A stretch of DNA of 55,595 nt from the NCBI GenBank assembly GCA_949283075.1, contig CASDRH010000029.1, positions 1 through 55,595 of the forward strand, in the 5' to 3' direction. Both the position numbers and the translations under genes were made by a program. The stretch comes from an uncultured Pseudomonadota bacterium (GTDB taxonomy: Bacteria > Pseudomonadota > Alphaproteobacteria > Rs-D84 > CASDRH01). The notes beneath the pieces are model-generated. The model saw nothing but the letters and a program-made list of their open reading frames with translations, was not told the DNA's origin and did not search any database. How positions within the stretch are numbered: position 1 is the stretch's first letter; the number at the start of each line of letters is the position of its first letter. Of this stretch, positions 24,179 to 43,132 are shown piece after piece.

Positions 24179-24207
24179 TTGACTTATATATGCCAGTATA
24201 TTATATT
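24179..24207 (+). promoter_or_regulatory. Candidate sigma70 promoter in front of the phage-like structural module
   Basis: TTGACT (24179-24184), 17 nt spacer, TATATT (24202-24207). Confidence 0.45.
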
Positions 24208-24246
24208 GTTTTTCGTTAATAGGATAATTGTGTCCAATATTATTTT

Positions 24247-24272
24247 AAGCTGGTTTATTGCCAGCTTTTTTA
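24247..24272 (+). terminator. Intrinsic-terminator-like hairpin inside the leader of the structural module
   Basis: AAGCTGG (24247-24253) pairs with CCAGCTT (24261-24267) and is followed by a T-run. It lies between the promoter and the GGAG RBS of the 24290 ORF. Confidence 0.5.
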
Positions 24273-24289
24273 TTTAATGGAGCTTAAAA

Positions 24290-24568
24290 ATGGTTAGTTT
24301 ATATTTACTTTGTTTTAGTATCTTTATAATCCAAATTTTTATTGTGATTGTTTTTAGATATATGCTTAATAGTTATAGAAAATATTTTGATGATAATATT
24401 ATTAAATTTTATGAAACTATGTTAAATGAAGTATATGAAATATATCTACATATATTTGAATACAAGATATTTATTCAAGATAATTATGCTTCATTTAAAG
24501 ATTTAGAAAAGATGCAAAAAAATATTGATAGTAAGATTAAGGACATATCAAAGATAAAATATATTTAA
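24290..24568 (+). CDS. Small membrane protein (hypothetical)
   Basis: 92 aa with an N-terminal TM helix and a GGAG RBS. Confidence 0.45.
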   Translation: MVSLYLLCFSIFIIQIFIVIVFRYMLNSYRKYFDDNIIKFYETMLNEVYEIYLHIFEYKIFIQDNYASFKDLEKMQKNIDSKIKDISKIKYI

Positions 24569-24598
24569 GTTTAGTTTATATTTAGTTCGAGGTAAATT

Positions 24599-25357
24599 AT
24601 GGAAAATATACAAAATAATAATTCTGAATATTCTTATAAAGGTTATAAAATTCCTGAAAAATTTATTGATAGTAAATCTGGCAAAATAAGGATTGATGCT
24701 TTAATTAAGTCATATTTAGAATTAGAAAAGATGTTAAGTAATCGTGAAAAATATTATAATAAATTTGTGAATGATAGCTCTGATAAATCAGATAATATTT
24801 TAAGCAAATCTTTGCAAGATGAAGATGATAATGTAATTGATCCAAATGATATTGTTATAAAATTAAATTCTGGAATTGTTCAAAATTGTGTAAAAATGAA
24901 TCAAGAGTTATTGCATAATGGTTTTAATATTGAACAGATTCAAAAGGTTTATGAAATAATTGAAGATTGGGTTTTACCAGAATTTATTGATTTTGCTAAA
25001 CAAATGTATTTTGATAACGAAATTGAAAAGTTAAATAATACTTTTGGTGGTGCTGATAAATTTGAATTAGTTGCAAATCAATTATACAAATGGGCTGTTA
25101 AAAATTTAAGTTCTGATGTTTTGAAAATTCTTGCAAGTTCTTATAATGGTATTGTTGCTATGTATTATATGATGATTAAATCTGAACCTATGGTTGATAC
25201 AATACTTGCAGATATTGACGGGAACTTATATACAGAAGATAATTTAAAACAAATGATGAAAAATCCTAAATATTGGTTGCAAAAAGACCCTGATTTCATT
25301 CGTCAGGTATCAGATGGTTTTAAACAATTATATGGTAATCAGGCTTATTTAAAATAA
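24599..25357 (+). CDS. Phage scaffolding protein (T7 gp9-like)
   Basis: 252 aa, acidic and helical, located upstream of the capsid gene. The C-terminal GGADKFELV...LKQMMKNPKYW..DPDFIRQV resembles, from memory, the conserved C-terminal part of T7-group scaffolds. Confidence 0.6.
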   Translation: MENIQNNNSEYSYKGYKIPEKFIDSKSGKIRIDALIKSYLELEKMLSNREKYYNKFVNDSSDKSDNILSKSLQDEDDNVIDPNDIVIKLNSGIVQNCVKMNQELLHNGFNIEQIQKVYEIIEDWVLPEFIDFAKQMYFDNEIEKLNNTFGGADKFELVANQLYKWAVKNLSSDVLKILASSYNGIVAMYYMMIKSEPMVDTILADIDGNLYTEDNLKQMMKNPKYWLQKDPDFIRQVSDGFKQLYGNQAYLK

Positions 25358-25581
25358 ATTTTATAAAATTGACAGTTTTTATTTTTGTTAAGTTAATTCT
25401 TGCTTGTTTTTTCAATAAGATATATACTTTTAAAGTCGTTTGATGAAAAAATGCTTTTATTCATTATTTTTGTATATTTATCATACATTTAATACAAACG
25501 ATTTTAGTTATATGATTTTTGCCAATTTGTAGAGTAACCCATTTTGTTTTTATGGCAAAATTTAATTAAGGATTTATTAAG

Positions 25582-26274
25582 ATGAAAAAAAATGATTATA
25601 AAAATAATCAAGCAGATAATATTAACAAAAAAAACAAATCTGCTTTTAGAAAATTTGTTGATGAATATTTAACTGTTAAAAATGTATTATATTATTATAC
25701 TATCGGTATTATATCTTTTTGTTTAGTTTCAAAAAGTATTGATATACTTGAACATACGGAGGTTTTGAATATCCCTGTGCGTTCAATGTTCTTAATTGAT
25801 ATCGGTAATTTATTATATGATATTACTATTTATTTAGTCCCTGCTTTGTTTATTGGTGCTATGAGTAAAATTATTCGCAAAAAAAGTCAGGGTCGTAAAA
25901 TTGGCTATATTATGACTCAAGGTTTAAAGAAAAAAATATTCTTGTCTTGCTTATTTGCTTTGGCAAATTGTGGGGCTCATATAGCTGTGTTTGAAGGTAT
26001 TACTTTTTCTCATATAGCTTATACTTTTTTATTTTCTTTCTTTATTATGCTTTTGACTATGTCTGCTTTTTTAGGCTTGTTCAAAGAATTGCTTCCTGTA
26101 TTGGATATGGATTTACAACGCAGACCTTCTAATCCTAATAAAAACAAAAATGTTAAAAATTATAATGCTAATAATATGCCTAGCTTAAATGGTATTAACT
26201 TTCAAAATGGTAATTTTGTTGAAAAAGTTAAACGTAAAAACTTTTCTTATCAAAATGATGATTCCAATAATTAA
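25582..26274 (+). CDS. Polytopic membrane protein (hypothetical), inserted between the scaffold and capsid genes
   Basis: 230 aa with about 4 predicted TM segments and an AAGGA RBS. Two terminator hairpins follow it. Confidence 0.55.
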   Translation: MKKNDYKNNQADNINKKNKSAFRKFVDEYLTVKNVLYYYTIGIISFCLVSKSIDILEHTEVLNIPVRSMFLIDIGNLLYDITIYLVPALFIGAMSKIIRKKSQGRKIGYIMTQGLKKKIFLSCLFALANCGAHIAVFEGITFSHIAYTFLFSFFIMLLTMSAFLGLFKELLPVLDMDLQRRPSNPNKNKNVKNYNANNMPSLNGINFQNGNFVEKVKRKNFSYQNDDSNN

Positions 26275-26279
26275 TTATT

Positions 26280-26305
26280 ACCGGATTTTTTAGTCCGGTT
26301 TTTAT
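26280..26305 (+). terminator. Intrinsic terminator
   Basis: ACCGGA (26280-26285) pairs with TCCGGT (26294-26299), followed by a T-run. Confidence 0.6.
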
Positions 26306-26327
26306 TTATTATTTAAAAATAAAATTT

Positions 26328-26365: not shown

Positions 26366-26401
26366 TTTAATTTCCTTATTCACAATAAAAAGAAATATCT
26401 T

Positions 26402-26647: not shown

Positions 26648-27472
26648 ATGTCTGAAAATAGTATTGAAAATGCTTTTATAAAGCAATTTGAAGCTGAGGT
26701 CCATTTGGCTTATCAACAAACTGGAACTAAATTACGTCAGACTGTTAGAAATAAATCTAATGTTGTTGGCGCTACAACTGTGTTCCAAAAAGTTGGTAGA
26801 GGAACTGCTTCTACTAAACAAAGAAATCAACCTATTACTACAATGAATCTTGATTACACCTCTGTTGAATGTAATTTACAAGATTATTATGCCGGTGATT
26901 GGATTGATGCTTTAGACGAAATTAAAACAAATATTGATGAACGTAAAGTTATTGCTTCCGCAGGAGCTTATGCTTTGGGTCGAAAAACTGACGAGTTGAT
27001 TATTACTGAATTAGAAAAAGCAACTCAAATCATCGATGTTGCTGATTCAGGTTTAACAAAAGATAAAATTATGGCGGCTATTGAATTATTAAATGCTGCC
27101 GAAGTCCCTGATGATGGTCAACGCTTCGGTGTAGTCGGTGTTCATCAATGGAATGAATTATTAAAAATTGAGGAGTTTTCATCTGCTTCTTATGTTGGTG
27201 AAAATTATCCTTTCTTAAACGGTTTTGAAAATCGTAAATGGATGGGAATTATCTGGTTATTACATACTGGTCTGCCTTTGTCTGATACAAATCGTAGCTG
27301 CTTTATTTATCATAAGCACTCTATCGGACATGCTTGCGGTCAAGATGTAAAAACTGATATTTTCTGGAATGGAGAATGTGCGGCTTATTTTGTTTCTAAT
27401 TCTATGAGCCAAGGTTCTGCAATAATAGATCAAACTGGTATCGTTAAAATTTTATGTAAAGATACTGCTTAA
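26648..27472 (+). CDS. Phage major capsid protein (HK97 fold, T7 gp10-like class)
   Basis: 274 aa from the ATG at 26648 (AAAGGA RBS). The N-terminal FIKQFEAEVHLAYQQTGTKLRQTVR...FQKVGRG...DYYAGDWIDALDE...GRKTDELII parallels the gp10-type pattern. It sits between the scaffold and tail-adaptor genes. Confidence 0.75.
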   Translation: MSENSIENAFIKQFEAEVHLAYQQTGTKLRQTVRNKSNVVGATTVFQKVGRGTASTKQRNQPITTMNLDYTSVECNLQDYYAGDWIDALDEIKTNIDERKVIASAGAYALGRKTDELIITELEKATQIIDVADSGLTKDKIMAAIELLNAAEVPDDGQRFGVVGVHQWNELLKIEEFSSASYVGENYPFLNGFENRKWMGIIWLLHTGLPLSDTNRSCFIYHKHSIGHACGQDVKTDIFWNGECAAYFVSNSMSQGSAIIDQTGIVKILCKDTA

Positions 27473-27528: not shown

Positions 27529-27560
27529 GGAGTCGTGATTTTTTTACGGCTCCTTTTATT
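27529..27560 (+). terminator. Intrinsic terminator immediately after the capsid gene
   Basis: GGAGTCGT (27529-27536) pairs with ACGGCTCC (27546-27553), followed by TTTTATTTT. Confidence 0.6.
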
Positions 27561-27586: not shown

Positions 27587-28150
27587 ATGGCTTTATCTAA
27601 AATTGATTTATGTTCAAAGGCTTTGTTGAAAATCGGAGCTTTTCCAATTTCTTCTTTTGATGGTGATACTCCAGAGCAAATTATTTCTGACCACTTATAT
27701 TATGTTGTAAAACACCAGTTGTTATCTGAATATAATTGGAGTTTTGCTACAATACAGCGTGAGTTAAATATGATAAATGCTAAGCCTTTGTTTAATTTTA
27801 AATATGTATTCACTTTGCCAGAAGATGTAATTTCTGTTATAACTGCTGATAATTTATGTGGTGGTAAAATTGATTATAAAATCGTTAAAGATGAATTACA
27901 TACTAATTCTGATAATGTGCTTTTAAAATATGTGTATGATTGTCCAGAAGAATATTTTTCTTCCGACTTCATTACTCTGATTATTGAAAAATTAGCGGGT
28001 GAATTCGCTATACCTTTAACTGAAAATACTGCAAAAGCTAATTACTTTTTGAATAATGCTAATCTTTTATTATTAAAAGCTAAATCAAAAGATGGCTTAC
28101 AAAAAAAGCCTAGTTCTATTAAAAACTTTGTTTTAAGTGATGTCAGATAA
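27587..28150 (+). CDS. Tail tubular protein A / adaptor (T7 gp11-like)
   Basis: 187 aa (an alternative ATG lies at 27575). The N-terminal CSKALLKIGAFPISSFDGDTPEQ matches the gp11 pattern (xxILASIGExPVxxLEGD). The size and position are as in T7-like phages. Confidence 0.7.
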   Translation: MALSKIDLCSKALLKIGAFPISSFDGDTPEQIISDHLYYVVKHQLLSEYNWSFATIQRELNMINAKPLFNFKYVFTLPEDVISVITADNLCGGKIDYKIVKDELHTNSDNVLLKYVYDCPEEYFSSDFITLIIEKLAGEFAIPLTENTAKANYFLNNANLLLLKAKSKDGLQKKPSSIKNFVLSDVR

Positions 28151-28176: not shown

Positions 28177-30117
28177 ATGAAAAGGATTTTTATTATGGGT
28201 AAAATTACAAAGACTTCTAGTAGCTTTTCTTTCGGGGAGGTATCCCCTGATTTAGTTTCAAGAGAAGATTTGGGAACTTATGAAAAAGGGGCTATGGTTT
28301 TAGAAAATTTTGTTGTGTCTGTTATTGGCGGTATTAAACGCAGAAGTGGTTTAGAATTTTTACATAAATTATCTGGTAATGGTAGATTGATTGAATTTCA
28401 TATTGATGAGCAAAATTCTTACTGTATTGTTTTAACAAATTTGAAAATTTCTATTTTTAAAAATGGTAAATTTATTTTTAATATCCCTGCCCCTTGGATT
28501 GAAAGTGATATAAAAGATATTCAATGGGTGCAAAATGAAAATGAATTATTGTTGGTTCATTTTAAATACCCTCCTCGTATTTTGAAAATGAAGTCTGAAA
28601 ACGAATGGATGTTAAATGAATGGGATACTTTGCAAATAGGTGTTAAAAATACTTTGATGCCTTTTGCAAACTTTATAAAAACTTCTGGTATATCTTTTAC
28701 TGTTAATCGTGTTGGCGATAATTTAAGCAAAAATGCTAATATTGTTGCTAGCGATAATTTCTTTTTTAAAGAATATGTTGGTATTCATTTAAAAATTAAC
28801 AATGGATTTTTTCGTGTCACTGAATTTGTTGATGAAAAAACTATGAATTTAGAAATTATAAAAGAACCTGAAAATTTTAATCCTGTTTTTTCTTTTGAAG
28901 AACAAGTTTTTTCTCATTTAAGAGGTTATCCTAAATCAATTACTTTTTATCAAAACAGATTGATTATTGGCTGATCTCGTGATTTACCTTCAAGAATTTG
29001 GATGAGTAAAATTGGAGATTATTTTAATTTTGAACTTGGTGAAGGTTTAGATGATGATGCTATCATATTTGATATTATATCTGATAAACCTGAAATTATT
29101 CAGTCAATTTTTGCCGGTAAACATTTACAGGTTTTTACAACTGATTCTGAATGGGTTATTACTTCTTTTCCTATGACTCCTGCTAGTGTGCAGTTGAAAA
29201 AACAAACTGGAATTGGTTCAATTTCTTCTAGATACATTCCTCCAATGTTTATTGAAGGTTCGACTATGTTCATAGCAAAAAATGGGGTTGAAATTCGTGA
29301 GTTCTTATTCGGCGAAGTTGAACAGGCTTATTCTTCTTTTGACCAAACCGTTCTTTCAAAACACTTGATGCGTTTCCCTTTGGACCAAGCATACGATATT
29401 ACTAACAGAACTTTATATATACCTATGAAAGACGGCTCTATGGCTGTTTTGACTATTAATAAAGATTATGGATTGCGTGCTTGGAGTAAATTTACTACCG
29501 CAGGGAAGTTTTTATCTGTTGCTATTGTTGGGGATAAAACTTATGTAATGGTTCAGAGAAATGATGAAGTCTTTTTAGAATGGTTTAATGATAAAGTTAA
29601 TACTGATTGTTGTATAAAAATTATTGCTGATGATGATTTGAATAATAAAGATATAAATGTTAGTCATCTTAAAAATAAAGTCGTTTATGTTATAGAAGAT
29701 AATATTATTTATCCTGTTCAAAAATTATCTGATAATATTTATCATTTGAAAAATTCAGATGCTGAAAATTTAGAAATAGGTTTGCCTTATATACATACTT
29801 ATGTTCCTTTGCCTCCAATTTTTTCTGGTAATAAATCTGCTAAAAAAGTTATGTTAATAAATGTTGTATTCAGGCTTATGAATTCAAAATATCTATCTGT
29901 TGATACTGGATATGGTATTAGATTTATTCATTTGGATAAATACAATAAAAATGACTTTTTTAATCAAATCGGAAAAAATAAAACTCTTGATGTTGAGGTT
30001 AAATCTTTCGGTTGGAAGCATTCTTTTAATGAACCTGTTTTTAAAATTCAGTCCGCTGTTCCAGCGAATTTTCAAATAGTATCCGTGCAAGCAAATTATC
30101 AAATGGAATCTTTTTAA
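28177..30117 (+). pseudogene. Tail tubular protein B / nozzle (T7 gp12-like), interrupted by one in-frame TGA
   Basis: ORFs 28177-28974 and 29002-30117 are in the same frame, separated only by the TGA at 28972-28974. The sequence across the stop, YQNRLIIG*SRDLPSRIWMSKIGDYFNF, corresponds to the conserved gp12 segment RNRLxFxxG...SxxxxYFNF. Confidence 0.6.
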
Positions 30118-30133: not shown

Positions 30134-30577
30134 ATGTTTAGTTTATTAGATGATGTTATCAATATCGGTTTGAATATATTTGGTAATAAAAAAAAGAAAC
30201 AACAAGCAAAACAAAAAAATGAATTGATACAGCAATTAGCTACTGAACAATATTTGTCAGATAAAGAAGACTTAATTTTAAAACATAATTTACAACAAAA
30301 ACAAAATGTTGATTTGTTAAATAAAACTATTTCTGGAAGTAAGGCTAATTTTGCTAAAAATGGATTGAAGACAAGTCAATCTGCTGATAATGCTATTAAA
30401 GCTATTGATGATGCTGGTAAAGAATTATTAAATCAGCAAAATAAAATATTTGATTTGAATTTAAAAAAATTACAGCAAGCTTATCAGAATAAAATTGCTA
30501 TCGGTAATTTGAATTATAAAACTGAAATTGAAAATGCTGATTTCAACTTAATTAATCAGATTTATAAACAATTCTAA
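30134..30577 (+). CDS. Hypothetical coiled-coil virion-associated protein
   Basis: 147 aa, K/Q-rich and helical. It occupies the position of the T7 internal-virion genes but is far smaller. Confidence 0.4.
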   Translation: MFSLLDDVINIGLNIFGNKKKKQQAKQKNELIQQLATEQYLSDKEDLILKHNLQQKQNVDLLNKTISGSKANFAKNGLKTSQSADNAIKAIDDAGKELLNQQNKIFDLNLKKLQQAYQNKIAIGNLNYKTEIENADFNLINQIYKQF

Positions 30578-30595: not shown

Positions 30596-31474
30596 ATGGA
30601 TAAAAATTATTTTAATAATAAATATAAATTATCTGCTAATATTGATTGTGTTGATGATTTTGACAATTTAAATTGTATTCAAAATGAATCATTTCTTGAT
30701 GATAATGTTGTATCTGATTTTGAAAGTAAAAGCTCTTGTTCTGTGAAGTATATATGCAATGGTAATAATAAATGCTTTGATATACCTTTTAAAATCTTTC
30801 AAAAAGAGTTTATAAAAGTTTATATTGATGATGTATTATAACAATCTGGATTTGATATAATTGAAAATGAACACGGAACCGGAGTTGTATTATTTAACTT
30901 TGATATTGTTTCTGGTAGTCATTTAATTATTACTAGAGAAATGGAGTTTAAAAGAAATTATATATTTCAAACTGGTGGTTCTTTTAAAGCAGAAGAAATA
31001 AATTATGAGCTGGATTATCAAGCAAGTTATATCGCTGAATTAAATGAAGCAATGAAAAATGCTTTAATTCTTCCTAATAAAAGCGGTAATAATAATTTTA
31101 ATAATGTATTGCCTAATCCTCAAAAAGGTTGCGCTTTGGTTTGGAATGAAAACGAAGACGGCTTTGTGAATGCTGATATAGGAAATGTAAAACAATATGC
31201 TGATATGGCAGAGGATTATTATAAATTAACAGAAGATTTGCACAAAGATATTATGGATAAATTGCAAAATTCTGATAATGGCTGGATTGGAGCTTATAAC
31301 AATATTATTGAAATTTTGAAAAATCTTGGTATTGATGCTGGGAAACCAATTGACCCTAATCACTCAATGGTTATTGATTGCGGTTCTGTGAATGACAGTG
31401 CTGATGATAATGTTGATTATGGCAGTATTTCTGAACCTGCTAATGATAATGATGATTATGGGAATATAGTTTAA
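30596..31474 (+). pseudogene. Tail fibre, N-terminal (T7 gp17 tail-attachment) domain only, interrupted by one in-frame TAA
   Basis: ORFs 30587-30841 and 30941-31474 share a frame with a single TAA at 30839-30841. NGNNKCFDIPFKIFQKEFIKVYID and HLIITREMEFKRNYIFQTGGSFKAEEINYELDY parallel DGSNRDFNIPFEYLARKFVVV and ELRRVTSTTDRLVDFTDGSILRAYDLN of T7 gp17, recalled from memory. I take the ATG at 30596 as the start, after GAAAGGTGG. Confidence 0.55.
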
Positions 31475-32214
31475 TATATTTTTTTAGCTTATTTTATGGA
31501 TTTTATTATGATTTTAGATGATGTGAAAAATAGCTCACTTTCAAGTGATGTGAAAAAAAGTAATCGCAAAGTATCATTTATCAGATTTATAAAAATTTAG
31601 AATGATTTACAACAATGGAATGTTCCAGATATTCATAAAGAAATGGCAAAATGGTTAAGTAATTTATACAATAGTAAAAATAAAAAAGGTTTATTATTGG
31701 CTTTTCGTGGGTCTGGGAAATCTTCTATTGCTGGTTTGTTTGCTGCTTGGGTTTTATACAAACAAAATGATTGCAGAGTTTTGATTGTTTCTGCTGATGA
31801 GCGTTTGGCAAAAAAAATGTCTGCAAATGTTAAGAAAATTATTTCTAAACACCCTTTGATGCAGGAATTGAAACCTAAAAAAGGAGATTGGGCAACAAAT
31901 AGCTTTACTATATCTCGCAATAAAGAATTAAGAGACCCTTCCGTTATGGCTATTGGTATTTCTGGAAATATTACTGGTTCTCGCGCCGATGTGATTATTT
32001 GCGATGATGTGGAAGTTCCTAAAAATTGCAACACTTTCTTAAAACGAGAATTATTACGTGAAAAATTAAATGAATTAGAGTTCGTTATTACTCCTAATGG
32101 ATTGATTTTATATCTTGGCACTCCTCATACTTTGAAAACTATCTATAAAACAAATTAGACAAAATATATTATTTCATAAATAACTTGACAAAATAATTTT
32201 ATCGTATAATATCA

Positions 32215-32330
32215 TTGCAAAATATACAAAAACATACTTTTGTATATATTAAAGTAAATCTGACTATCCTCGAAGTTACTCCCTCCTTATTTTCTCTCCT
32301 CTATATTAACTTCGGGGACTTTTTTTATTT
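32215..32330 (+). ncRNA. Candidate small RNA 1 (ends approximate)
   Basis: TTGACA (32185-32190) and TATAAT (32205-32210) lie upstream, but the spacer is only 14 nt. One hairpin spans 32221-32250. The stem CCTCGAAGTTA (32268-32278) pairs with TAACTTCGGGG (32307-32317) around the loop CTCCCTCCTTATTTTCTCTCCTCTATAT, followed by T7. Confidence 0.35.
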
Positions 32331-32529: not shown

Positions 32530-32558
32530 TTGACTTTTTGATTTTGACTTGCTATAAA
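32530..32558 (+). promoter_or_regulatory. Candidate sigma70 promoter inside the terminase insert
   Basis: TTGACT (32530-32535), 17 nt spacer, TATAAA (32553-32558). Confidence 0.45.
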
Positions 32559-32564
32559 TCTGCC

Positions 32565-32675
32565 CATAAAGCAGGACGAAGTATTTTATATTTCTTCCTT
32601 AAACAACAGAATTTCTCTCTCCTTTCCTCCTTTTCTCCTTTTGTGTTTATGGACCTGCTTTATTTTCTTTTTTTA
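32565..32675 (+). ncRNA. Candidate small RNA 2 or cis-leader of the terminase 3' half (ends approximate)
   Basis: The stem AAGCAGG (32569-32575) pairs with CCTGCTT (32654-32660). It encloses a loop with CTTCCTT...CTCTCTCCTTTCCTCCTTTTCTCCTTTT and is followed by a T-rich tract, 34 nt before the ATG at 32709. Confidence 0.35.
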
Positions 32676-33678
32676 ATCTTATTTATTCTTTTAATTTATG
32701 GTGATGATATGAATAATTTTCTTGATGATGAAAATGATGCTTTCTTGGCTGGATTTGATGTCTTGAAAATTCCTATTATTCGTGATGGCAATCCTGTTTG
32801 GCCAGAACAATTTTCTTTGCAGAAAATTGATGATATTAAACGAAAAACTGGATTGAATAAATTTTCTTCTCAAATGATGCTGGAACCTGTTTCTATTAAT
32901 TTTGGTAGCTTTAATTTAGATGACTTAATCGTTTATAATGATGATTTAGATATAACTGAATCAAATAGTGTTGTAAATTACTATATATCAGGTAAACGAT
33001 TAAAATATTACTCTTGTTATTGGGACCCTTCTTTCGCAGGTGCTAAATCTGATGGCTCCGTTATCGCTGTGGTTTTTATTGATGAAGATTTTCATTATTA
33101 TATACACGATGTTAAATATTTGAACTTTGATACTGAACTTTATAACAACTATAATCAAGAACGTAATAAATCTGCAAAAGAACAATGCAAAGATGTTATT
33201 GATTTTATGTTGCGTTATAACTTATTTGTTTTAAATGTTGAAACAAATGGTATCGGAAAATTTTTGCCTGAACTCTTACGTGATGAAATTACTTCAAGAC
33301 GCCTTAATATATCCGTTAATGAAAAAGTAAATAAAATTTCAAAAGATATTAGAATTATTGATGCAATTAAATGTCCTCTTACATCTGGTTTTGTTCATAT
33401 TAAAAAAAATTTATTAAATACTCAACTTGGTGCAGAGTTCGAAGAATGGAATCCTATCGCTTGCAAAAATAATCAAGTTCGTGATGATGGGCTTGATGCT
33501 GTTGCTGGAGCTATTTTATCAGATGCAGTTTTGATTTCTAGGTTTAAAATTAACCCTTTGAAACATAAAGGTTTTCGCATTTATAAAGTAAAAAATGATT
33601 TTAATGTTTAATAATTAAGGATTTATGATATAATTGTCCAGTATCTTAATTTAACAATATAATAATGGGGATAATATT

Positions 33679-34185
33679 ATGAATCTAAATCGTTTTAAAC
33701 AAACTAATTTATATAAAGGTCGTTCTATGATTGAAATGCTTGGCGTTTTGGCTTTGATGGGCATTTTGACTGCTGCAACTTTCCAAATGTATAATTATGC
33801 TAGCAATAAATCAAAAGCTATGAATATGGAAGACCAGATTAATCAAACTGCTGAAGATGTTAAAACTTTATTCCTTGGCAGAAATTGGGATGGCTTCCAA
33901 AGAATTTCTGATAGAACTTCTTCTGAAAAATATTTTGAAGATAAAAAAATTAAATTACGCGATGCTTGGGGTAATCCTATTTATATTTTAAGAACTGAAA
34001 CAAAAGACCAAAAATTAGCAAGATTTTATATCCAATTAAATGATGTTGAAGCTGCTGATTGTGTTAATTTAGGTAAACGTATTAATCCTACTTTATTACG
34101 TGTTAACAATTTAGATGTTAAACCTGGCCAAATTCCTTTATGTCAGAAAGATAAAAAGAATGTTATGCAATTCTTTTATAGATAA
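33679..34185 (+). CDS. Type IV pilin-like protein (prepilin-type N-terminal domain)
   Basis: 168 aa. KG/RSMIEMLGVLALMGILTAA has Glu at +5 and a hydrophobic helix. A C-terminal Cys pair (CVNLGK...PLCQ) fits a pilin D-region. Confidence 0.65.
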   Translation: MNLNRFKQTNLYKGRSMIEMLGVLALMGILTAATFQMYNYASNKSKAMNMEDQINQTAEDVKTLFLGRNWDGFQRISDRTSSEKYFEDKKIKLRDAWGNPIYILRTETKDQKLARFYIQLNDVEAADCVNLGKRINPTLLRVNNLDVKPGQIPLCQKDKKNVMQFFYR

Positions 34186-37043: not shown

Positions 37044-38006
37044 ATGCAAAAATTTAGTAAAGTTTTTAAAGTTTTATTATCTGTTGGTATAGGATTGATG
37101 GTTGGTTCTGTATTCGTTTATAAATTGAACTCTGTATCAATTCAACAAAGCAGTAAAATTGAACCTGATTTAAAAGAAAAAATATATGGTAAAAGTTCAA
37201 ATAAAACTGTTAAAGAAAAGATAGTTGCTAATAAACAATACGAAAATAATGTTAAAATAACTAGAAATAATATTAAAAATGTTGCTTATACTGAAACTGC
37301 TGTTGTTTCTAAACCAAAAGTTATTCGTATTATACGTCGTGAATTTGTTAAAGATAATTATCAACCTGTTGCTAAATCAGAACAATATCTTCCTGAAAAT
37401 AGAAGTTTGTCTTATTATCGTCCTAATTATGATGATGTTAGAAAAATTCAACAAAATGCTGATACTTATGATTATTTGAGAAGTCAGCATAGCCCTGAAT
37501 ATTATCAAAATGAACAAACTGTTAAAGAATTAGAAGACAGAGGATACCTTTCTGTAAATGATTTAGCTTTTATCAAAAACGATGATGATATAAAAGTTTT
37601 TTATGAATACAAGGTTGTTTCTCCTGATACTTTAAGAAAATTAAAAGCTAATAACTATTATAAAAATAATAATGTTAATACTAAAGTTATTAGCAAGCCT
37701 AGAAAAGTTATAAATGCTCCCAATAACTGGGATGTTTTTGATGGTAATTTTGTTTTAAGTGCTGATAATATCGGTGATTTAAAAAGCAATACTGTTATAA
37801 CTGGTAATTTATATATTATGAATTTTAATTGGGTTAAATTACCTGAAAATATAAAAGTTATGGGTAATGTTTATGTTCAAAATTCTCAAGGCGTATTGTT
37901 TAGATATAACACTGTTATTGAAGGTAGCGTCTTTATGAAAGGAAATTCTAGCTTGAAAGCTATGTCTGAAAATGTTAAAATTAAAGGACAAGTGTTTTTA
38001 GGTTAA
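37044..38006 (+). CDS. Hypothetical membrane-anchored protein
   Basis: 320 aa with an N-terminal TM helix. The C-terminal end has short beta-strand repeats (GNLYI, GNVYV, GSVFM, GQVFL). Confidence 0.5.
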   Translation: MQKFSKVFKVLLSVGIGLMVGSVFVYKLNSVSIQQSSKIEPDLKEKIYGKSSNKTVKEKIVANKQYENNVKITRNNIKNVAYTETAVVSKPKVIRIIRREFVKDNYQPVAKSEQYLPENRSLSYYRPNYDDVRKIQQNADTYDYLRSQHSPEYYQNEQTVKELEDRGYLSVNDLAFIKNDDDIKVFYEYKVVSPDTLRKLKANNYYKNNNVNTKVISKPRKVINAPNNWDVFDGNFVLSADNIGDLKSNTVITGNLYIMNFNWVKLPENIKVMGNVYVQNSQGVLFRYNTVIEGSVFMKGNSSLKAMSENVKIKGQVFLG

Positions 38007-38177: not shown

Positions 38178-38253
38178 GGTTCGGTAGCTCAGTCGGTAGA
38201 GCAAAGGACTGAAAATCCTTGTGTCGGGGGTTCGATTCCCTCCCGAACCACCA
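38178..38253 (+). tRNA. tRNA-Phe (anticodon GAA)
   Basis: GGTTCGGTAGCTCAGTCGGTAGAGC, anticodon loop CTGAAAA, T-arm GGTTCGATTCC, terminal ACCA. Confidence 0.92.
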
Positions 38254-38368: not shown

Positions 38369-38385
38369 AAGAAACCGTACGACAT

Positions 38386-38526: not shown

Positions 38527-39043
38527 AAATATACCCCTATAAATATTTATATTCCGTATGTTATTAGGTATTTTTTCTTTTTTCAAGTATTTATAATAAA
38601 AAACATTAGAAATTATATCTCTATAATATCTAATGTTTTTCTTGTGATAATGCATTAATATCAGTCTCTTAATCCTGATATAATTATTACAAATATCAAT
38701 AAAACGAGAATCCACAAACAAATCATATATGCCTTAGCAATGAAATGTATAACTGATAACACTTGCATAAATATAATAACTCCTTAAATTTTAATTTTTT
38801 ATTAATCTTATCCCTTATATACTTTTTATCAAGTAATTATTTTATTTTTAGACTAAAATTATTATTTTTGTCTTTTTTTATAAAATTTTACATATTTTAT
38901 TATGTATTGCTCGCTTATTATCTTATTTTTTGATTTTTTTTAATTATTTTTTAAAAACTTCTGTATATGTGAGGATTTTTGTGATATAATTAAAATCATT
39001 GGAGAAAAACTGATTTTTTAAAGATTTCGATTTGGGGGAGATA

Positions 39044-41035
39044 ATGGGAATCGGATTTAATACCGTTGGTAATTTTTCAAAAATTTCAACAGGTTTCGGA
39101 GATAAAAATCCTGGAAATGCAGTAAATATTACTATTATGGGCGTTGGCGGTGCCGGCGGAAATATCATAAAATTTTTAATGGATAAAAGAATCAGTGGCG
39201 TGAATTTTATTTATGCTAATACTGATTTGCAGGCTTTAAGTGCGAATCCTTCTTCTAATATTATTCAGTTGGGTAAAAAGACTACTGGCGGGTTTGGTGC
39301 CGGTTCTGACCCAAATGTTGGTGAAAAATCTGCTATGGAAGCAACTGAGGAAATTAAAGCTTCTTTAAATGGTACAAATATGCTTATCTTAATTGCTGGT
39401 CTTGGTGGAGGTACTGGAACTGGAGCAAGTCCTGTAATTGCTAAAATTGCAAAAGAAATGGGTATTTTAGTATTATCTTTTGCAGTATTGCCTTTTGATT
39501 TTGAAGGAGACAGAAAAAATGTTGCTGAAAACTGGTTGCAAAACTTATTAGTTTCAAGCGATTCATTAATCAGTTTATCAAATCAAAAATTGTTGAATTT
39601 AGATGATTCAAATTTACGTTTTGATTTGTCTTTGGAAGTTGTCCACGACATAGTTTATCAAGGTGTTAATAGTATTGTTAGTTTGTTAAATCAAAATGAA
39701 CTTATTAATAGAGACTTTTCCGATATCGTCCAAGTTATGAAAGATAAAGGTTTAAGTTTAATAAGCTCTGGTCGTGCAAGTAATAATCAAAATGCTTCTC
39801 GTGCTGTATTGGCAACTGAACAAGCTTTGAATAATCCTTTGTTATCTGATGTTTCTATACACGGAGCAAAGGGTATGATTGTTACTATCTGTGCTAAACA
39901 AGAATCTTTAAAGACTATCGAAGTTAGCGAGGTTATGAACCGTATCACAAAAGAAATGAATTCGCATAATACAAAGGCGAATATTTTATTAGGTGTTTCT
40001 TTTAGCGATGATTATTCTGATGATTTAATTGTTTCTATTATTGCTACTGGTTTAGTGGGTAGAAAAAATGTTAATGCAGATAATGAAACTTTTAATAAAT
40101 TTGATTATTTAAATTCTAATCAAGTTGTTTCTGGATTTGGCCAATCTATAAGTTTGAATGATGAATCTGATGCTTTCTTTAATGATATGGCTAAAAATCA
40201 AGATGTTGTAGAAAGCAATGTTGCTGTTGATAAAAGTTCTTTAAATGACGATAGTAAATTTGATGATTTAAATGATGATATTAAAACAGATAATGATGAG
40301 ATTAATTCAAAAGATGATGATATCGTTGAAATAAAATCTGATAAAAAAGATTTTGATTTTTCTGGATTGAATGATTTCTTATCTGGTGATGCTTTTGGAC
40401 AAGCTAAAAATAATATAGATGACAATTCAAAATCAAAAATAGAATTTGATTCATTTGATTCTGATTTTGGTTTTAGTGATATGAATGATAATATTGATAA
40501 TTCAGATTTCGGTTTGGAAGATGAATATTCTATGGCTGAAAATAAAAAAGGATTTTTTCAATCTTTCTTCGGTCGTAATGATAAATTAAAAAAAGATAAT
40601 AAAGAAAATATTGTTAAAAATTATTTATCAGATAATCAAAAACAAAATAATGATAGTAAGTTAGATGGCAATTTTTCAAATGTTAAAAGCTATTCTGATT
40701 TAGATTTCTTAAACGAATTAAAAGATATAAATGGTTTTGAAAATTCAGATGCTAATAATAAATCTGATGAAAATAAAGATGAAATCAAAATTTCATTTTT
40801 AAATTCTTCTATCGGTGAAGATGATGAATTCTTTTCTGATATAAATTTTGATTCTGATTTTAGTGATGCTGAAAAAGAAATTATCAAAAATGATGTAGGT
40901 AATAATACAAATAATGTTGATGATAATGTTACTTATATTTCTGAAATGGATAATAATAAAAAAGAAGCTCCGAAATATTATACTAAACAAGTTGATATAT
41001 TTGAATTGATTGAAAGTATTACTGGAACAAAATAA
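39044..41035 (+). CDS. ftsZ: Cell division protein FtsZ with a ~320-aa acidic N/D/S-rich C-terminal linker
   Basis: GVGGAGGN, GGFGAGSDPNVG, AGLGGGTGTGASPVIAKIAKE and NRDFSDIVQVM (T7 loop). The ATG at 39044 is preceded by GGGGGAG. Confidence 0.9.
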   Translation: MGIGFNTVGNFSKISTGFGDKNPGNAVNITIMGVGGAGGNIIKFLMDKRISGVNFIYANTDLQALSANPSSNIIQLGKKTTGGFGAGSDPNVGEKSAMEATEEIKASLNGTNMLILIAGLGGGTGTGASPVIAKIAKEMGILVLSFAVLPFDFEGDRKNVAENWLQNLLVSSDSLISLSNQKLLNLDDSNLRFDLSLEVVHDIVYQGVNSIVSLLNQNELINRDFSDIVQVMKDKGLSLISSGRASNNQNASRAVLATEQALNNPLLSDVSIHGAKGMIVTICAKQESLKTIEVSEVMNRITKEMNSHNTKANILLGVSFSDDYSDDLIVSIIATGLVGRKNVNADNETFNKFDYLNSNQVVSGFGQSISLNDESDAFFNDMAKNQDVVESNVAVDKSSLNDDSKFDDLNDDIKTDNDEINSKDDDIVEIKSDKKDFDFSGLNDFLSGDAFGQAKNNIDDNSKSKIEFDSFDSDFGFSDMNDNIDNSDFGLEDEYSMAENKKGFFQSFFGRNDKLKKDNKENIVKNYLSDNQKQNNDSKLDGNFSNVKSYSDLDFLNELKDINGFENSDANNKSDENKDEIKISFLNSSIGEDDEFFSDINFDSDFSDAEKEIIKNDVGNNTNNVDDNVTYISEMDNNKKEAPKYYTKQVDIFELIESITGTK

Positions 41036-41063
41036 TCGTATCAAGAAATAAAAATAAATAAAG

Positions 41064-41093
41064 CGTTTTTGAGTTATCAAAGACGTTTTTTTT
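41064..41093 (+). terminator. Intrinsic terminator after ftsZ
   Basis: CGTTTTTG (41064-41071) pairs with CAAAGACG (41078-41085), followed by T8. Confidence 0.6.
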
Positions 41094-41157
41094 ATTTTTA
41101 TGTTTATTGTTATTGGCGATTTTTAAATTACTTATATTAATCATTAAATTTTAAAGG

Positions 41158-42921
41158 ATGTTTATTATGAATATGTTTATGAATTCTAAAATTATCATTG
41201 ATGATGATTTAAAAAAATCTGTTAATAATATCAAAAAACGTTTTAAAAAAGCTTTTGAACATAGACAAAAATGGGATAATTTATGGCTTGATTGCTATCG
41301 TTATACTATGCCTAATGAAGCTGATTTGTTTTATAAATCTTCTGATAATTCTGATGTAAATAATAATTATAATTTATACGATTCAACCGCTATGGAAGCT
41401 GTTGAAAACTTATCTGCAAATATGTTATCTCAAATTACTCCTGCTTGGAGCAATTGGTTTTCTTTATCTATTGCTGATAATTCTGCTTTGGATAATATGC
41501 CTTTGAATGAAAAAACTGATATAGAATTACAGATTTTAAATAATGAAAAAATTATTCAAAGCCATTTTAATAAATCAAACTTCTATATCGAATTACATCA
41601 ATGCTATATCGACTTGATTACTGTCGGAACTGCTTGCCTATTGTTTGAAGAAAATAAAATTGGCGAAGAATCTGCTTTTAAATTTACAAGTATTCCTATG
41701 TCAGAAATTGCTTTGGAAGAAAACTTTAATGGTAAATTAGATACTATTTTTCGTAGGTCTGCTATTTCTGTTAAAAATTTGATTGATAAATTTACTGATA
41801 TATCTTTATCTGATGAATTGAAAAAATTTGTTGATAATAATCCTAATCATAAAGTTAATATCATTGAATGTGTTTATCCAAATGATAATGAATTTGGAAC
41901 AAATGGTTATAAATATATATCTTTTGTTGATGATGAATTTAATACTTTTTCAAAAGATGATAATCCTATCGTTTTAAAGCAAGGTTTGTTTCCTGTTAAC
42001 CCTTTCATTTGCTTTCGTTGGTTGAAAACTCCTGGGGAAATTTATGGACGCTCCCCTGTTATGAAAGCTTTACCAGATATAAAAACTGCAAATAAAGTTG
42101 TTGAATTGATTTTGAAAAATGCAAGTATTGCTGTTTCCGGTATTTGGCAAGCAGAAGATGATGGTGTCATTAATTTAGATAATATTAAGCTTTCTCCTGG
42201 AACTATTATTCCAAAAGCTGTTGGTTCGGCTGGTTTAAGTCCTTTGCAAACATCTTGTGATTTTGATGTTTCTCAACTGGTCTTAAATGATTTGCGTAAT
42301 AATATCAAAAAATGTTTGCTAGCTGATAATATTTTAGCTATGCAAAATAACAATAAAATGACTGCAACAGAAATAAATGAACGTGTCTTTGAAATGGATA
42401 AAGTGTTAGGAGCTACTTTTGGTCGTTTGCAATTCGAGCTTTTAAATCCAATAATTAAAAGAGCTGTCCAGATTTTAAAAAGACGTGGTGAAATAGATGA
42501 TATAGCTATTGATGGATTTAATGTTTCTGTTTCTTACTCTTCCCCAATTGCAAAAGCTGAAAAAAAGCGTGAGGCTGCAAATATTATTGCTTGGATTCAA
42601 AGTATATCTAATTTAGGTAATGATGCTATCGATTATGTTGATAAAAAAGCTGTCGTTAAATTATTAAATGATTTGTTAGGCATTCCAGATAACTTAATTG
42701 TTAAAGATAATGATGTTATATCTAATGATGTATCCGATGATATTAATAAATGTTTAGATGATATTTTAAATCAAAATAATAATGAAATTAATGAACAGTT
42801 AGAAAACAATTTAAGCAATGAAATTGTGAATAATGATATTTCTGAAAATAATTCAAATAATGATGAACAGATTAACAATAAAAATGATGAGGTTAAAAAT
42901 GATGAACAAAATGTCGAATAG
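41158..42921 (+). CDS. Phage portal / head-to-tail connector protein (T7 gp8-like)
   Basis: 587 aa (alternative starts at 41167, 41173 and 41179). WDNLWLDCYRYTMP, YGRSPVMKALPDIKTANKV and MTATEINERVFEMDKVLGATFGRLQFELLNPIIKR parallel gp8 segments, recalled from memory. The C-terminal N/D/E-rich tail is host-like low complexity. Confidence 0.8.
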   Translation: MFIMNMFMNSKIIIDDDLKKSVNNIKKRFKKAFEHRQKWDNLWLDCYRYTMPNEADLFYKSSDNSDVNNNYNLYDSTAMEAVENLSANMLSQITPAWSNWFSLSIADNSALDNMPLNEKTDIELQILNNEKIIQSHFNKSNFYIELHQCYIDLITVGTACLLFEENKIGEESAFKFTSIPMSEIALEENFNGKLDTIFRRSAISVKNLIDKFTDISLSDELKKFVDNNPNHKVNIIECVYPNDNEFGTNGYKYISFVDDEFNTFSKDDNPIVLKQGLFPVNPFICFRWLKTPGEIYGRSPVMKALPDIKTANKVVELILKNASIAVSGIWQAEDDGVINLDNIKLSPGTIIPKAVGSAGLSPLQTSCDFDVSQLVLNDLRNNIKKCLLADNILAMQNNNKMTATEINERVFEMDKVLGATFGRLQFELLNPIIKRAVQILKRRGEIDDIAIDGFNVSVSYSSPIAKAEKKREAANIIAWIQSISNLGNDAIDYVDKKAVVKLLNDLLGIPDNLIVKDNDVISNDVSDDINKCLDDILNQNNNEINEQLENNLSNEIVNNDISENNSNNDEQINNKNDEVKNDEQNVE

Positions 42922-43132
42922 AGAAATGGAATTGTTTGAAAAAGCTTTTGCTAGATGTTTTGCGAAAGCTGATGGGCAAATAGTTTTGGATTATTTGCAT
43001 AGTATTACTTATGATAAGCCTGTTTCAATTTATGCTAGCGATGCAGAGTTAAGACATAATGAAGGTCAAAAACATATTGTTTTTATTATAAATAGCTTGA
43101 TTAAAAAAGGTTCTGATAGAAACAGATTATAA
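42911..43132 (+). CDS. Small phage-associated protein (hypothetical)
   Basis: 73 aa, MSNREMELFEKAFARCF...LRHNEGQKHIVFIINSL. It overlaps the portal stop by 11 nt. The family was not identified with confidence. Confidence 0.4.
   Translation: MSNREMELFEKAFARCFAKADGQIVLDYLHSITYDKPVSIYASDAELRHNEGQKHIVFIINSLIKKGSDRNRL

Follow-up and report, generated by a model that had tools for sequence, protein, structure and literature searches.

An uncultured, very AT-rich alphaproteobacterium carries T7-type head, tail and DNA-packaging genes that are woven around the cell-division gene ftsZ. The homology, gene content and synteny of this set, its co-divergence with host genes, the purifying selection acting on it and the covariation in an associated RNA point to a GTA-like gene set of T7-supergroup origin, which probably has been inherited vertically under selection and was disabled in the present strain. 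Since the relatives inherited and conserved the particle genes without replication or integration genes, the set looks like a new kind of GTA-like particle.

Profile searches in the 55,595-nucleotide stretch of DNA analysed here (the window) place the particle cluster at 24.6–43.1 kb and identify scaffold, capsid, adaptor, nozzle, fibre, large terminase and portal as well as a Bbp19-like gene (Table 1). The order of the cluster is circularly permuted, running from the scaffold via the terminase to the portal and the Bbp19-like gene, with ftsZ and tRNA-Phe inside, and its base composition matches that of the host flanks. A first-pass annotation of the same DNA had described this gene order, the gap of 7.5 kb between terminase and portal, and the positions of tRNA-Phe, ftsZ and mipZ, all of which were recovered upon re-annotation. 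The seven phage families it had named were confirmed at their places, with the window proteins of scaffold and fibre below the Pfam cut-offs, except that the capsid belongs to PF19821 (Phage_capsid_2) and not to the T7 gp10 family as such. The Bbp19-like gene, the division of the terminase into two genes, the in-frame stops and the small RNA had escaped it.

Table 1. Features of the particle cluster and of the genes interleaved with it (window coordinates).
Feature	Coordinates	Strand	Evidence and remarks
Promoter-like site and short hairpin-ended leader (uncertain part)	24179..24275	+	upstream of scaffold operon
Scaffold, T7 gp9-like capsid assembly protein	24599..25357	+	PF05396 E 1.8e-4, under Pfam cut-off
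Membrane protein with basic termini, accessory, between scaffold and capsid	25582..26274	+	no family match
Major capsid protein	26648..27472	+	PF19821 E 3.4e-70; phrog_3437 E 8e-69
Tail adaptor, gp11-like, tubular tail A	27587..28150	+	phrog_394 E 1.5e-32
Tail nozzle, gp12-like, tubular tail B	28195..30117	+	phrog_376 E 7e-42 / 1e-47 (two halves); in-frame TGA 28972-28974
Small coiled-coil protein, 147 aa, in internal-virion-protein slot	30134..30577	+	no match for window protein itself
Short tail fibre, T7 gp17 N-domain type	30596..31474	+	PF03906 E 0.008; in-frame TAA 30839-30841
Terminase large subunit, N-terminal gene (terminase-N: Walker A, Walker B, coupling motif)	31508..32158	+	phrog_38 positions 297-455, E 5e-42; in-frame TAG 31598-31600
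Small RNA 1, own promoter-like site, terminator hairpin with 28-nt CU-rich loop containing CCUCCUUA	32216..32330	+	fold z-score -4.8
Small RNA 2, second promoter-like site and hairpin, CU-rich loop (UUUCUCUCUCCUUUCCUCCUUUUCUCC), T-run	32556..32690	+	fold z-score -5.3
Terminase large subunit, C-terminal gene (terminase-C: rest of ATPase and RNase H-like nuclease)	32709..33611	+	phrog_38 positions 467-701, E 9e-32; PF22530 E 1e-4
Type IV pilin-like protein, prepilin motif G|RSMIE	33679..34185	+	homologous to L087 pilin-like genes (tblastn E 4e-9)
320-aa protein	37044..38006	+	C-terminal domain resembles conserved 218-220-aa gene after terminase-C in relatives
tRNA-Phe(GAA), interleaved host gene	38178..38253	+	ARAGORN and Rfam
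ftsZ, host cell-division gene, not phage-derived	39032..41035	+	PF00091 and PF12327; E 6e-62 to solved FtsZ structures
Portal, gp8-like head-tail connector, N/D/E-rich low-complexity C-terminal tail	41158..42921	+	PF12236 E 4e-121; phrog_332 E 4e-109
Bbp19-like small protein	42911..43132	+	PF25181 E 5e-8; start overlaps portal gene end

Pfam and PHROG profile searches of the window detected no integrase, polymerase, primase, replication gene or lysis cassette, in line with the first-pass claim that integrase, RNA/DNA polymerase, primase and lysis cassette are missing, and the other large open reading frames revealed cellular functions only in Pfam scans. Neither att repeats nor integrase, replication or lysis modules, which would mark an intact or recently rearranged prophage, were found near the cluster within the window. 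Phage-derived structural and packaging genes that reside in the chromosome without genes for replication, integration or excision are characteristic of a GTA (viriform), and this is the content both of the window and of the 21-kb slices of its relatives. The single-subunit RNA polymerase and the replication genes that Autographiviridae, the T7-like phages proper, possess were found neither in the window nor in any related locus. No small terminase was recognised in the cluster. Upstream of the scaffold operon, TTGACT-N17-TATATT (24179–24207) is followed by a terminator-like hairpin (24247–24267; fold z-score -3.8). A replication origin at the switch of coding strand and GC skew near 24 kb was considered and rejected, with 23 DnaA-box matches against 20 expected; such an origin would have paralleled the run-off replication of Bartonella.

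The portal is of the gp8 type (Head-tail_con) that characterizes the T7 supergroup. Its low-complexity tail, taken in the first-pass annotation as a sign of long residence, is real but has no counterpart in relatives at ≤60% identity; as only the closest strains have it, it is weak evidence for long residence. A Bbp19-like gene follows the portal in 26 related loci. The scaffold is 24–40% identical to portal-adjacent scaffold genes in dozens of related loci, and the scaffolds of two relatives (L001 and L088) carry precomputed PF05396 matches. In the slot between scaffold and capsid, L087 encodes a 202-aa membrane protein with basic ends and L001 a basic protein with Lys/Ala repeats. The capsid protein shares 69–71% identity with those of L001 and L087, and its gene is followed by a terminator-like hairpin at 27529–27553.

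Moreover, the tail contains the combination of gp11-type adaptor (phrog_394) and gp12-type nozzle (phrog_376) that is typical for the T7 supergroup. The adaptor start was set in accordance with the 187-aa gene annotated in sister contig L089, and the nozzle has an additional, weak match to PF25675 (Phage_nozzle). The fibre aligns with the 237–240-aa fibres of L001, L085 and L087, and its orthologues in L087 and L093 give weak PF03906 matches. Between nozzle and fibre no large core proteins of the gp14-gp15-gp16 type were found. The first-pass statement that internal core and ejection proteins are lacking thus holds for the large gp15/gp16 type only, since the slot of the 147-aa protein is occupied in L001, L085 and L003 by small genes matching phrog_418 ('internal virion protein', E 4e-7 to 2e-5).

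The large terminase is divided into two clean genes, which are separated by about 550 nt of non-coding DNA. Terminase-N is colinear with the first half and terminase-C with the second half of the unsplit 488–492-aa terminases of loci L005 and L012. The two halves retain every conserved block of the unsplit enzyme, no conserved residue is removed by the split, and both are conserved even where they lie 4 kb apart in relatives. The two-gene terminase is a naturally occurring test case for the cooperation between the ATPase and the nuclease of a packaging motor.

Nozzle, fibre and terminase-N each contain one in-frame stop with both halves in the same frame. The nozzle TGA aligns with Gly in four relatives and with Ala in L085, and the terminase-N TAG with an invariant Trp. 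Three contigs of sister strains (L089, L090 and L091; 99.6% nucleotide identity), each covering parts of the cluster, have a sense codon at every stop site they cover, namely GGA in an intact 640-aa nozzle gene, CAA in an intact 292-aa fibre gene and TGG in a 216-aa terminase-N gene, so that the three nonsense codons are private to the window; the particle genes of these contigs are intact over the covered parts. An alternative code (TGA=Trp) and programmed read-through were both rejected, since the long host genes read under code 11, three different stop codons replace Gly, Gln and Trp, and the sister strains have sense codons. Among the tRNAs found in the window there is no suppressor tRNA. 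In the tail genes, 11 non-synonymous differences stand against 3 synonymous ones between window and sister strain, indicating relaxed constraint in this strain, and the three nonsense codons compare with 1.7 expected under neutrality. Most likely, the window copy is crippled by recent inactivation, and it does look like a case of very early decay.

Two putative small RNA genes are situated at the break of the terminase. The promoter-like site of small RNA 1 comprises TTGACA at 32185 and a TATAAT-like -10 box downstream. This RNA lies directly 3' of terminase-N in six other loci, with compensatory changes in 8 of 11 stem pairs, and nine further copies were found in metagenome contigs, seven of them with terminase-N just upstream. 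It thus co-occurs with the split terminase, its stem covaries, and its CU-rich loop resembles an anti-Shine-Dalgarno sequence. Small RNA 1 has no match in Rfam; known RNA families in the terminase gap were rejected, as Rfam searches at gathering and permissive thresholds returned tRNAs only. The conserved small RNA at the split represents a new RNA family, whose putative regulatory role is open to testing. CU motifs nearly identical to that of small RNA 2 occur in L001 (8056), L085 (5556) and L087 (7800). Among the 56 start regions in the window, the best predicted small-RNA target is ftsZ (-19.6 kcal/mol). However, ftsZ ranks anywhere from 1st to 16th among the local start regions of the relatives, and a specific targeting of ftsZ remains speculation.

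Several host and accessory genes are interleaved with the particle genes. L087 has two pilin-like genes between terminase-C and portal, with PF07963 (N_methyl) matches under the Pfam cut-off (E 0.013 and 5e-4). The 320-aa protein shares 32–46% identity over 86–103 residues with the 218–220-aa proteins of L001, L085, L003 and L086, a family with dN/dS of 0.13–0.32. The tRNA-Phe, which lies inside the window cluster without an accompanying integrase, is located between terminase-N and ftsZ in the same four relatives. ftsZ has its own terminator-like hairpin at 41060–41089 and is followed immediately by the portal gene in L001, L003, L085, L086 and L092.

Four relatives (L001, L003, L085 and L086), located by searching for the element itself and read as 21-kb slices of their contigs, display the same ftsZ-interleaved layout, the split terminase and all particle genes intact. 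Across the five genomes compared, the divergence of the particle genes tracks that of ftsZ and mipZ. Identities between L003 and L086 are 83% for ftsZ, 81% for the portal, 85% for terminase-N and 82% for terminase-C; those between L001 and L085 are 76% for ftsZ, 85% for mipZ and 77% for the portal; those between the window and the other relatives are 43% for ftsZ, 64% for mipZ, 52–54% for the portal and 69% for the capsid. Particle-gene dN/dS amounts to 0.11–0.18 (L003/L086) and 0.13–0.47 (L001/L085), compared with 0.07–0.14 for ftsZ and mipZ; these values are rough because dS, at 0.8–1.8, is near saturation. Values for the window versus L001 were discarded owing to saturated substitutions and poor global alignments. 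Vertical inheritance and purifying selection, another hallmark of a GTA (viriform), are thus seen in five genomes, with dS near saturation and three nonsense codons in the window copy. The first-pass annotation had set domestication against a decaying, rearranged prophage. Four relatives preserve the ftsZ-interleaved arrangement. The conditions that it had named as refuting domestication were not borne out as far as the analysis reached: the profile searches confirmed the phage families, dN/dS is about 0.1–0.5 and not near 1, and the missing modules are found neither in the window, which also has no att repeats, nor in the 21-kb slices. Long-resident domestication fits the lineage far better; early decay, on the other hand, is what the three private stops of this copy suggest.

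The window cluster corresponds to a uniform 12–13 kb element in rearranged form; the genes of this element run from a repressor and two small genes through portal, scaffold, capsid, adaptor, nozzle and spike to terminase and, in some cases, a lysin. Genomes of at least 247 alphaproteobacterial species carry this canonical element, as do at least 58 IMG/VR entries, and a replication module accompanies it in none of them. Each of these 58 entries, which are 9 kb or longer, shows the canonical architecture, and the longest does not exceed 18.8 kb. As the genome collection and IMG/VR were each scanned with six exact peptide words from the query portal, these counts are lower bounds; the ftsZ-linked relatives were missed by these scans and found by protein search. 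The module is uniform, its host flanks are lineage-specific, and 8–10 Roseomonas loci share all three upstream host genes. The repressor is a divergent CI-type protein (phrog_4; HTH_26 just under the Pfam cut-off), and many members carry a Hydrolase_2 lysin. In contrast, repressor, two small genes and Hydrolase_2 lysin are absent from the loci of the ftsZ-linked clade; no regulator was identified in the window cluster, and the clade has the conserved small RNA. Carriers of the canonical element include culturable Roseomonas and Pseudoroseomonas as well as gut and environmental lineages. Viral databases currently file these 12–13 kb regions as 'proviruses'.

Particle formation, packaging of host DNA, transfer and a role of the small RNA may be pictured as follows. 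An ancestor of the lineage would have gained a compact T7-supergroup element for head, short tail and DNA packaging, which would then have been passed on vertically under purifying selection and scrambled into the core genome. Within the clade, the terminase was divided in two, and a conserved small-RNA gene lies where it was split. On induction, the cell might make short-tailed capsids, and the two-chain terminase without recognisable small subunit could fill them with cellular DNA in a headful manner, like GTAs. Delivery into a recipient would rest on recipient functions, since the large ejection proteins gp15/gp16 are missing; in the case of RcGTA, such recipient functions are competence proteins. 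The pilin-like gene of the cluster and a nearby TfoX gene may, speculatively, relate to delivery. The CU-loop small RNAs probably restrain the translation of cluster or neighbour genes by pairing at ribosome-binding sites.

More tentatively, a second, independently domesticated alphaproteobacterial GTA family could have arisen from a T7-supergroup podovirus and now be present in hundreds of species. In the AT-rich clade it might have been wired into the cell-division locus, with the packaging enzyme made as two chains and an anti-Shine-Dalgarno small RNA coupling particle production to the translation of ftsZ, of tail genes or of both. If this is true, phage particles have been domesticated repeatedly, from very different phages, within one class, and alphaproteobacteria of gut, freshwater and soil have a large route for exchanging genes that has gone unrecognised. 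The GTA idea is directly testable because some canonical carriers are cultured strains.

The particle could also serve the host otherwise than by gene transfer, either as a PBSX-like, SOS-induced killing particle that packages DNA without delivering it or as a device for the release of DNA or protein. With its CI-type repressor and, in many members, a Hydrolase_2 lysin, the canonical family recalls PBSX and similar inducible defective prophages, the missing gp15/gp16-type ejection proteins speak against an efficient injection of DNA, and the same caveat was raised for FpGTA by its authors (PMC12946183). However, the complete packaging motor, consisting of the portal and both terminase halves, is under purifying selection, so that packaged DNA without a role is hard to explain, and no toxin or cargo is indicated in the sequence. 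We consider this alternative unlikely.

A non-functional prophage remnant that is slow to decay could persist through its interleaving with essential genes such as ftsZ. The split terminase, the scrambled gene order, the absence of canonical regulatory and lysis genes from the locus and the near-neutral number of nonsense codons in the window copy would fit such a remnant, but linkage to ftsZ cannot hold reading frames open. Pseudogenes, dN/dS near 1 and gene loss are not what the clade displays: at about 50% protein identity, four relatives still have every particle gene intact, as do the sister contigs over the parts that they cover, and the terminase split has cost no conserved residue. Stops and relaxed tail genes occur in the window copy alone. 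For the clade this explanation is already largely refuted, and overall it appears quite unlikely. Capsid-forming phage satellites exist, and a helper-dependent element with its own virion genes, borrowing replication and induction from a helper phage, would agree with the small size and the control module of a repressor plus two small genes; the identical architecture across many alphaproteobacterial lineages could likewise reflect horizontal spread. Against this, no integrase or replication initiator was found in roughly 140 loci examined, the chromosomal position is kept within lineages with a divergence that parallels host genes, and whole head and tail are encoded instead of a partial set, which makes a satellite highly improbable.

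Only a handful of GTA families are known, and the alphaproteobacterial ones studied so far all derive from siphovirus-like ancestors. The closest cultured phages of the present set are of the HTVC010P type, with 30–33% portal identity. These pelagiphages and other T7-supergroup podoviruses share the structural families and, with the canonical element, the order from portal, scaffold, capsid, adaptor and nozzle to terminase. However, these phages replicate and have genomes of 34–36 kb, which encode DNA polymerase, primase/helicase and large internal virion proteins; the chromosomal elements of 12–13 kb lack all of these and form a separate, much closer-knit group with 40–60% identity among themselves.

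[quoted passage not shown] The podovirus-prophage study of Hardies et al. 2023 (PMC10386132), considered as a prior report, deals with another lineage and says nothing of domestication. FpGTA likewise lacks replication genes, and its compact operon of about 10 kb encodes terminase, portal, scaffold, capsid and the proteins of a short tail. In contrast to the window set, it is found in another phylum (Firmicutes), includes a candidate small terminase, keeps lysis genes in a second operon and has been documented by microscopy, proteomics and data on the packaged DNA; no evidence for a common descent of the two was found.

In PBSX-type inducible defective prophages as in the canonical family, with its CI-type repressor and lysin, the host retains a set of particle genes that does not replicate and is under the control of a repressor, but PBSX is a myovirus-like Bacillus particle and the window clade lacks repressor and lysin at the locus. 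In E. coli, the cryptic prophage Qin encodes the small RNA DicF, which pairs with the ribosome-binding site of ftsZ and so prevents its translation. The small RNA of the window is analogous in being encoded in phage-derived DNA; however, the two share no sequence similarity, and the predicted ftsZ target, best in the window, has an inconsistent rank in the relatives.

RcGTA-type elements of Rhodobacter, Caulobacter and Dinoroseobacter descend from an HK97-like siphovirus with tape measure and long tail. The window set differs by its T7-supergroup origin (gp8-like portal, gp11/gp12 adaptor and nozzle, gp17-type fibre), by its two-gene terminase and in that no small terminase was recognised. Despite these differences, both are phage-derived chromosomal head-tail-packaging clusters of about 12–15 kb without replication or integration genes; both are inherited vertically, are subject to purifying selection and have some of their parts scattered over the genome.

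The T7-type phage families named in the first-pass annotation were all matched by profile searches between 24.6 and 43.1 kb of the window, scaffold and fibre weakly. Resemblance to an integrase, polymerase, primase/helicase or small terminase is absent from the window as stated there, and likewise no holin was detected. Base composition (G+C about 28%) is unbroken at the cluster, and genetic code 11 fits the ordinary bacterial genes of the window. The latter comprise a ribosomal protein operon, EF-G, PGK, a two-partner-secretion haemagglutinin, PBP1A, a MurA/AroA-type enzyme, MipZ and FtsZ. The EF-G sequence matches a metagenomic protein at 100% identity; among named proteins, annotated as coming from Rickettsiales or Rhodospirillales MAGs, identity peaks at 74–76%, which makes the host an uncultured alphaproteobacterium lacking close named relatives. 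Terminator-like hairpins follow the membrane-protein gene 3' of scaffold, the capsid and pilin genes, ftsZ and a 320-aa gene, splitting the cluster region into several transcription units, so that ftsZ expression would stay its own.

Profile matches of the particle genes and positions of features in the window and related loci
Feature	Sequence	Position (strand)	Remark
Scaffold	window		PF05396, weak match
Capsid	window		PF19821, E 3e-70
Adaptor	window		phrog_394
Nozzle, stop codon	window	28972	phrog_376
Fibre, stop codon	window	30839	PF03906, weak match
Large terminase	window		phrog_38
Terminase-N, stop codon	window	31598	
Portal	window		PF12236, E 4e-121
Bbp19-like gene	window		overlaps 3' end of portal gene
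Small RNA	window	32216-32330, 32556-32690	latter is second CU-loop unit
Small RNA	L001	7456-7514, 8042-8107	
Small RNA	L085	4168-4226, 5542-5607	
Small RNA	L003	2944-3004	
Small RNA	L086	3578-3638	
Small RNA	L087	7712-7776	
Type IV pilin-like	window	33679-34185	
Type IV pilin-like	L087	8838-9284, 9297-9764	
320-aa gene	window	37044-38006	
tRNA-Phe(GAA)	window	38178-38253	
tRNA-Phe(GAA)	L001	8162-8237	
tRNA-Phe(GAA)	L085	7876-7951	
tRNA-Phe(GAA)	L003	5411-5486 (-)	
tRNA-Phe(GAA)	L086	5714-5789 (-)	
Haemagglutinin-like, followed by 375-aa protein	window	12314-16626 (-)	former 1062 aa, with TPS domain and haemagglutinin repeats
TfoX N-domain gene	window	19920-20348	
Three adjacent genes	window	20413-24060 (-)	576, 393 and 220 aa
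Glucosaminidase-domain protein, AmiA-like amidase homologue	window	44061-45236, 46573-47550 (-)	just past mipZ
Receptor-like fragment	L093	5734-6435 (-)	

Among the flanking genes, the filamentous haemagglutinin-like two-partner-secretion protein is followed by a 375-aa protein whose DUF948 match is barely over the Pfam cut-off, with no individual domain significant; both fit a host- or surface-associated lifestyle. The three adjacent genes upstream of the cluster encode N-terminal signal or anchor sequences and gave no family match, and the 393- and 220-aa products have a WYYDNxREIGYSY motif in common and look paralogous. The glucosaminidase-domain protein and the AmiA-like amidase, sole candidate lytic enzymes near the cluster, adjoin PBP1A and the MurA/AroA-type gene and are probably host cell-wall genes.

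Portal homologues number in the thousands, and the best of them (45–60% identity) are all chromosomal in alphaproteobacterial MAGs, several on contigs of 0.2–1 Mb. Relatives were sampled by searching with the element itself, taking a 21-kb slice around each match. Four of them with 52–54% portal identity (L001, L085, L003 and L086) retain the interleaved layout at the ftsZ locus, where the first-pass annotation had called for a synteny comparison. The order is adaptor, nozzle, small internal protein, (fibre), the N-terminal terminase half (terminase-N), a non-coding gap, tRNA-Phe, ftsZ, portal, the C-terminal half (terminase-C), a conserved 220-aa gene and Bbp19-like, with mipZ or other host genes at the end. 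In a further relative, L087, the cluster lacks ftsZ: terminase-N and terminase-C are followed by a pair of pilin-like genes and then portal, with host genes immediately after. Particle genes are all intact in these relatives, and their protein identities follow those of ftsZ and mipZ in all pairs, with the same grouping. Nei-Gojobori dN/dS of the particle genes in the two informative pairs was 0.11–0.18 (L003/L086) and 0.13–0.47 (L001/L085), values that are approximate because dS is 0.8–1.8; ftsZ and mipZ gave 0.07–0.14. The full range of 0.11–0.47 is not near 1, the value that, with patchy presence among close relatives, was previously named as speaking against domestication. Frames remaining open at 40–85% identity despite saturated synonymous sites provide strong evidence of selection. 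Taken together, these observations support inheritance of the particle genes under selection. Within the cluster, tRNA-Phe(GAA) is a conserved neighbour of ftsZ, with no integrase beside it; it may once have served as the ancestral phage's attachment site, or it may be a passenger.

The window copy itself carries one in-frame nonsense codon each in nozzle (TGA), fibre (TAA) and terminase-N (TAG), the halves lying in the same frame in every case. The relatives encode Gly at the nozzle site (Ala in one of them), Gln or Ile at the fibre site and an invariant Trp at the terminase-N site. Three sister-strain contigs, 99.6% identical at the nucleotide level, have the sense codons GGA, CAA and TGG at all stop sites each covers, and encode intact proteins of 640 aa (nozzle), 292 aa (fibre) and 216 aa (terminase-N), so that the three stops are private to the window sequence. 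Compared with L089, one of these contigs, the tail genes show 11 non-synonymous versus 3 synonymous differences, and nonsense changes make up 3 of 33 substitutions, no fewer than the 1.7 expected under neutrality. Judged from these differences, the window copy would either have lost constraint very recently or have been inactivated under selection. The terminase genes differ from L089 almost exclusively by synonymous changes, tightly clustered at 31708–31735, 33056–33065 and 33221–33374, a pattern more suggestive of short tracts of recombination than of point mutation. Compared with the same contig, 6 nt are missing from the window at 22120, inside the 576-aa gene, and an additional 11 nt occupy 38603–38613 in the tRNA-Phe–ftsZ spacer. 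L092, another locus with ftsZ directly upstream of portal, displays in-frame gaps of 54 and 60 nt in the portal region, possibly assembly artefacts.

At least 247 portal relatives came out of a pattern-limited search through GTDB species genomes. ORF clustering of about 60 longer loci (>12 kb) among the best 80 revealed one uniform module: a divergent CI-type repressor, two small genes, portal, (Bbp19-like), scaffold, capsid, (small protein), adaptor, nozzle, internal virion protein, (tail spike with T7-type N-domain), a small gene and an unsplit terminase (about 490 aa), to which many loci add a Hydrolase_2 lysin. The flanks are host genes common within lineages; 8–10 Roseomonas loci have an identical set of three upstream genes, and several gut MAGs have downstream genes in common. 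Carriers include many MAGs of gut Alphaproteobacteria, Geminicoccaceae and, in culture, strains of Pseudoroseomonas and Acetobacteraceae such as Pseudoroseomonas ludipueritiae DSM 14915, P. wenyumeiae Z23 and Acetobacteraceae bacterium AT-5844. All 58 IMG/VR entries of at least 9 kb possess this architecture end to end, their sizes clustering at 11.5–14.5 kb with none above 18.8 kb. No replication or integration module accompanies any member in the 21-kb GTDB slices or the IMG/VR entries, and the closest cultured phages, HTVC010P-type pelagiphages, reach 30–33% portal identity. The window cluster, in which the repressor, its two small neighbours and the lysin were not found, can therefore be regarded as derived, by rearrangement and circular permutation, from a widespread replication-less element of 12–13 kb. 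This element is filed as proviruses in IMG/VR. Azospirillum loci have only portal and scaffold in common with it, and their neighbouring genes differ.

The split terminase is common to the window, the four ftsZ-linked relatives and L087. The two chains are colinear with the unsplit enzyme, no conserved block being lost: terminase-N holds Walker A, Walker B and the coupling motif, terminase-C what is left of the ATPase along with the RNase H-like nuclease residues. Some 4 kb separate the halves in L001-type loci, where they flank ftsZ and portal. Purifying selection acts on both. We know of no earlier conserved two-gene large terminase. Terminase-N is likewise a separate gene in L093, a relative with 40% G+C, where it is followed by an opposite-strand gene fragment resembling an outer-membrane receptor; this contig may be chimeric or differently arranged.

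Directly downstream of terminase-N, all six of these loci other than L093 harbor a putative small RNA gene preceded by a promoter-like site of its own. The gene ends in a terminator hairpin whose loop carries a conserved CU-rich sequence including CCUCCUUA, which matches the 3' end of 16S rRNA. The stem covaries, with compensatory changes in 8 of 11 pairs, and paired cells amount to 98.9% in a larger model-fitted alignment versus 75% in shuffles. A covariance model detected one strong copy per split-terminase locus, none in L093 and none in 56 searched loci without the split. Applied to metagenomes together with an exact 19-mer scan, it yielded nine more copies, seven of them with terminase-N immediately upstream. 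The second CU-loop unit of the window recurs in L001, L085 and L087. The RNA has no Rfam match and would constitute a new family. Predicted pairing favours purine-rich ribosome-binding sites; the top site in the window is ftsZ, inconsistently so in the relatives. To our knowledge, a dedicated small RNA at a terminase split is without earlier instance.

Scaffold, capsid, portal, adaptor, nozzle, small internal protein, short fibre and a complete two-chain terminase are present, by homology the set that would be required for assembling a short-tailed capsid and loading DNA. In combination with the lack of any recognisable replication, integration or small-terminase gene, with vertical inheritance and with selection, this corresponds to a gene transfer agent (GTA) profile, for which reason it is proposed that cellular DNA may be packaged headful-wise into short-tailed capsids. 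Since gp15/gp16-type ejection proteins are missing, delivery of DNA would have to draw on functions of the recipient. Genes for pilin-like proteins that carry a prepilin cleavage motif lie directly after terminase-C, conserved in two lineages with 48% portal identity. About 4 kb upstream of the cluster lies a gene of the competence-regulator family TfoX (N-domain), whose listed TTG start overlaps tRNA-Thr(GGU), so that the real start is probably further downstream. Speculatively, both genes may bear on DNA delivery.

Reliance on recipient functions, supposed here, is known for RcGTA, the alphaproteobacterial GTA of HK97-like siphovirus origin. On genomic criteria the element would be GTA-like. 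Full-text searches returned no T7-type domesticated particle or GTA in Alphaproteobacteria, in keeping with the initial remark that no T7-like GTA had been described. In Faecalibacterium, FpGTA was named in 2026 as the first podovirus-like GTA-like element (PMC12946183).
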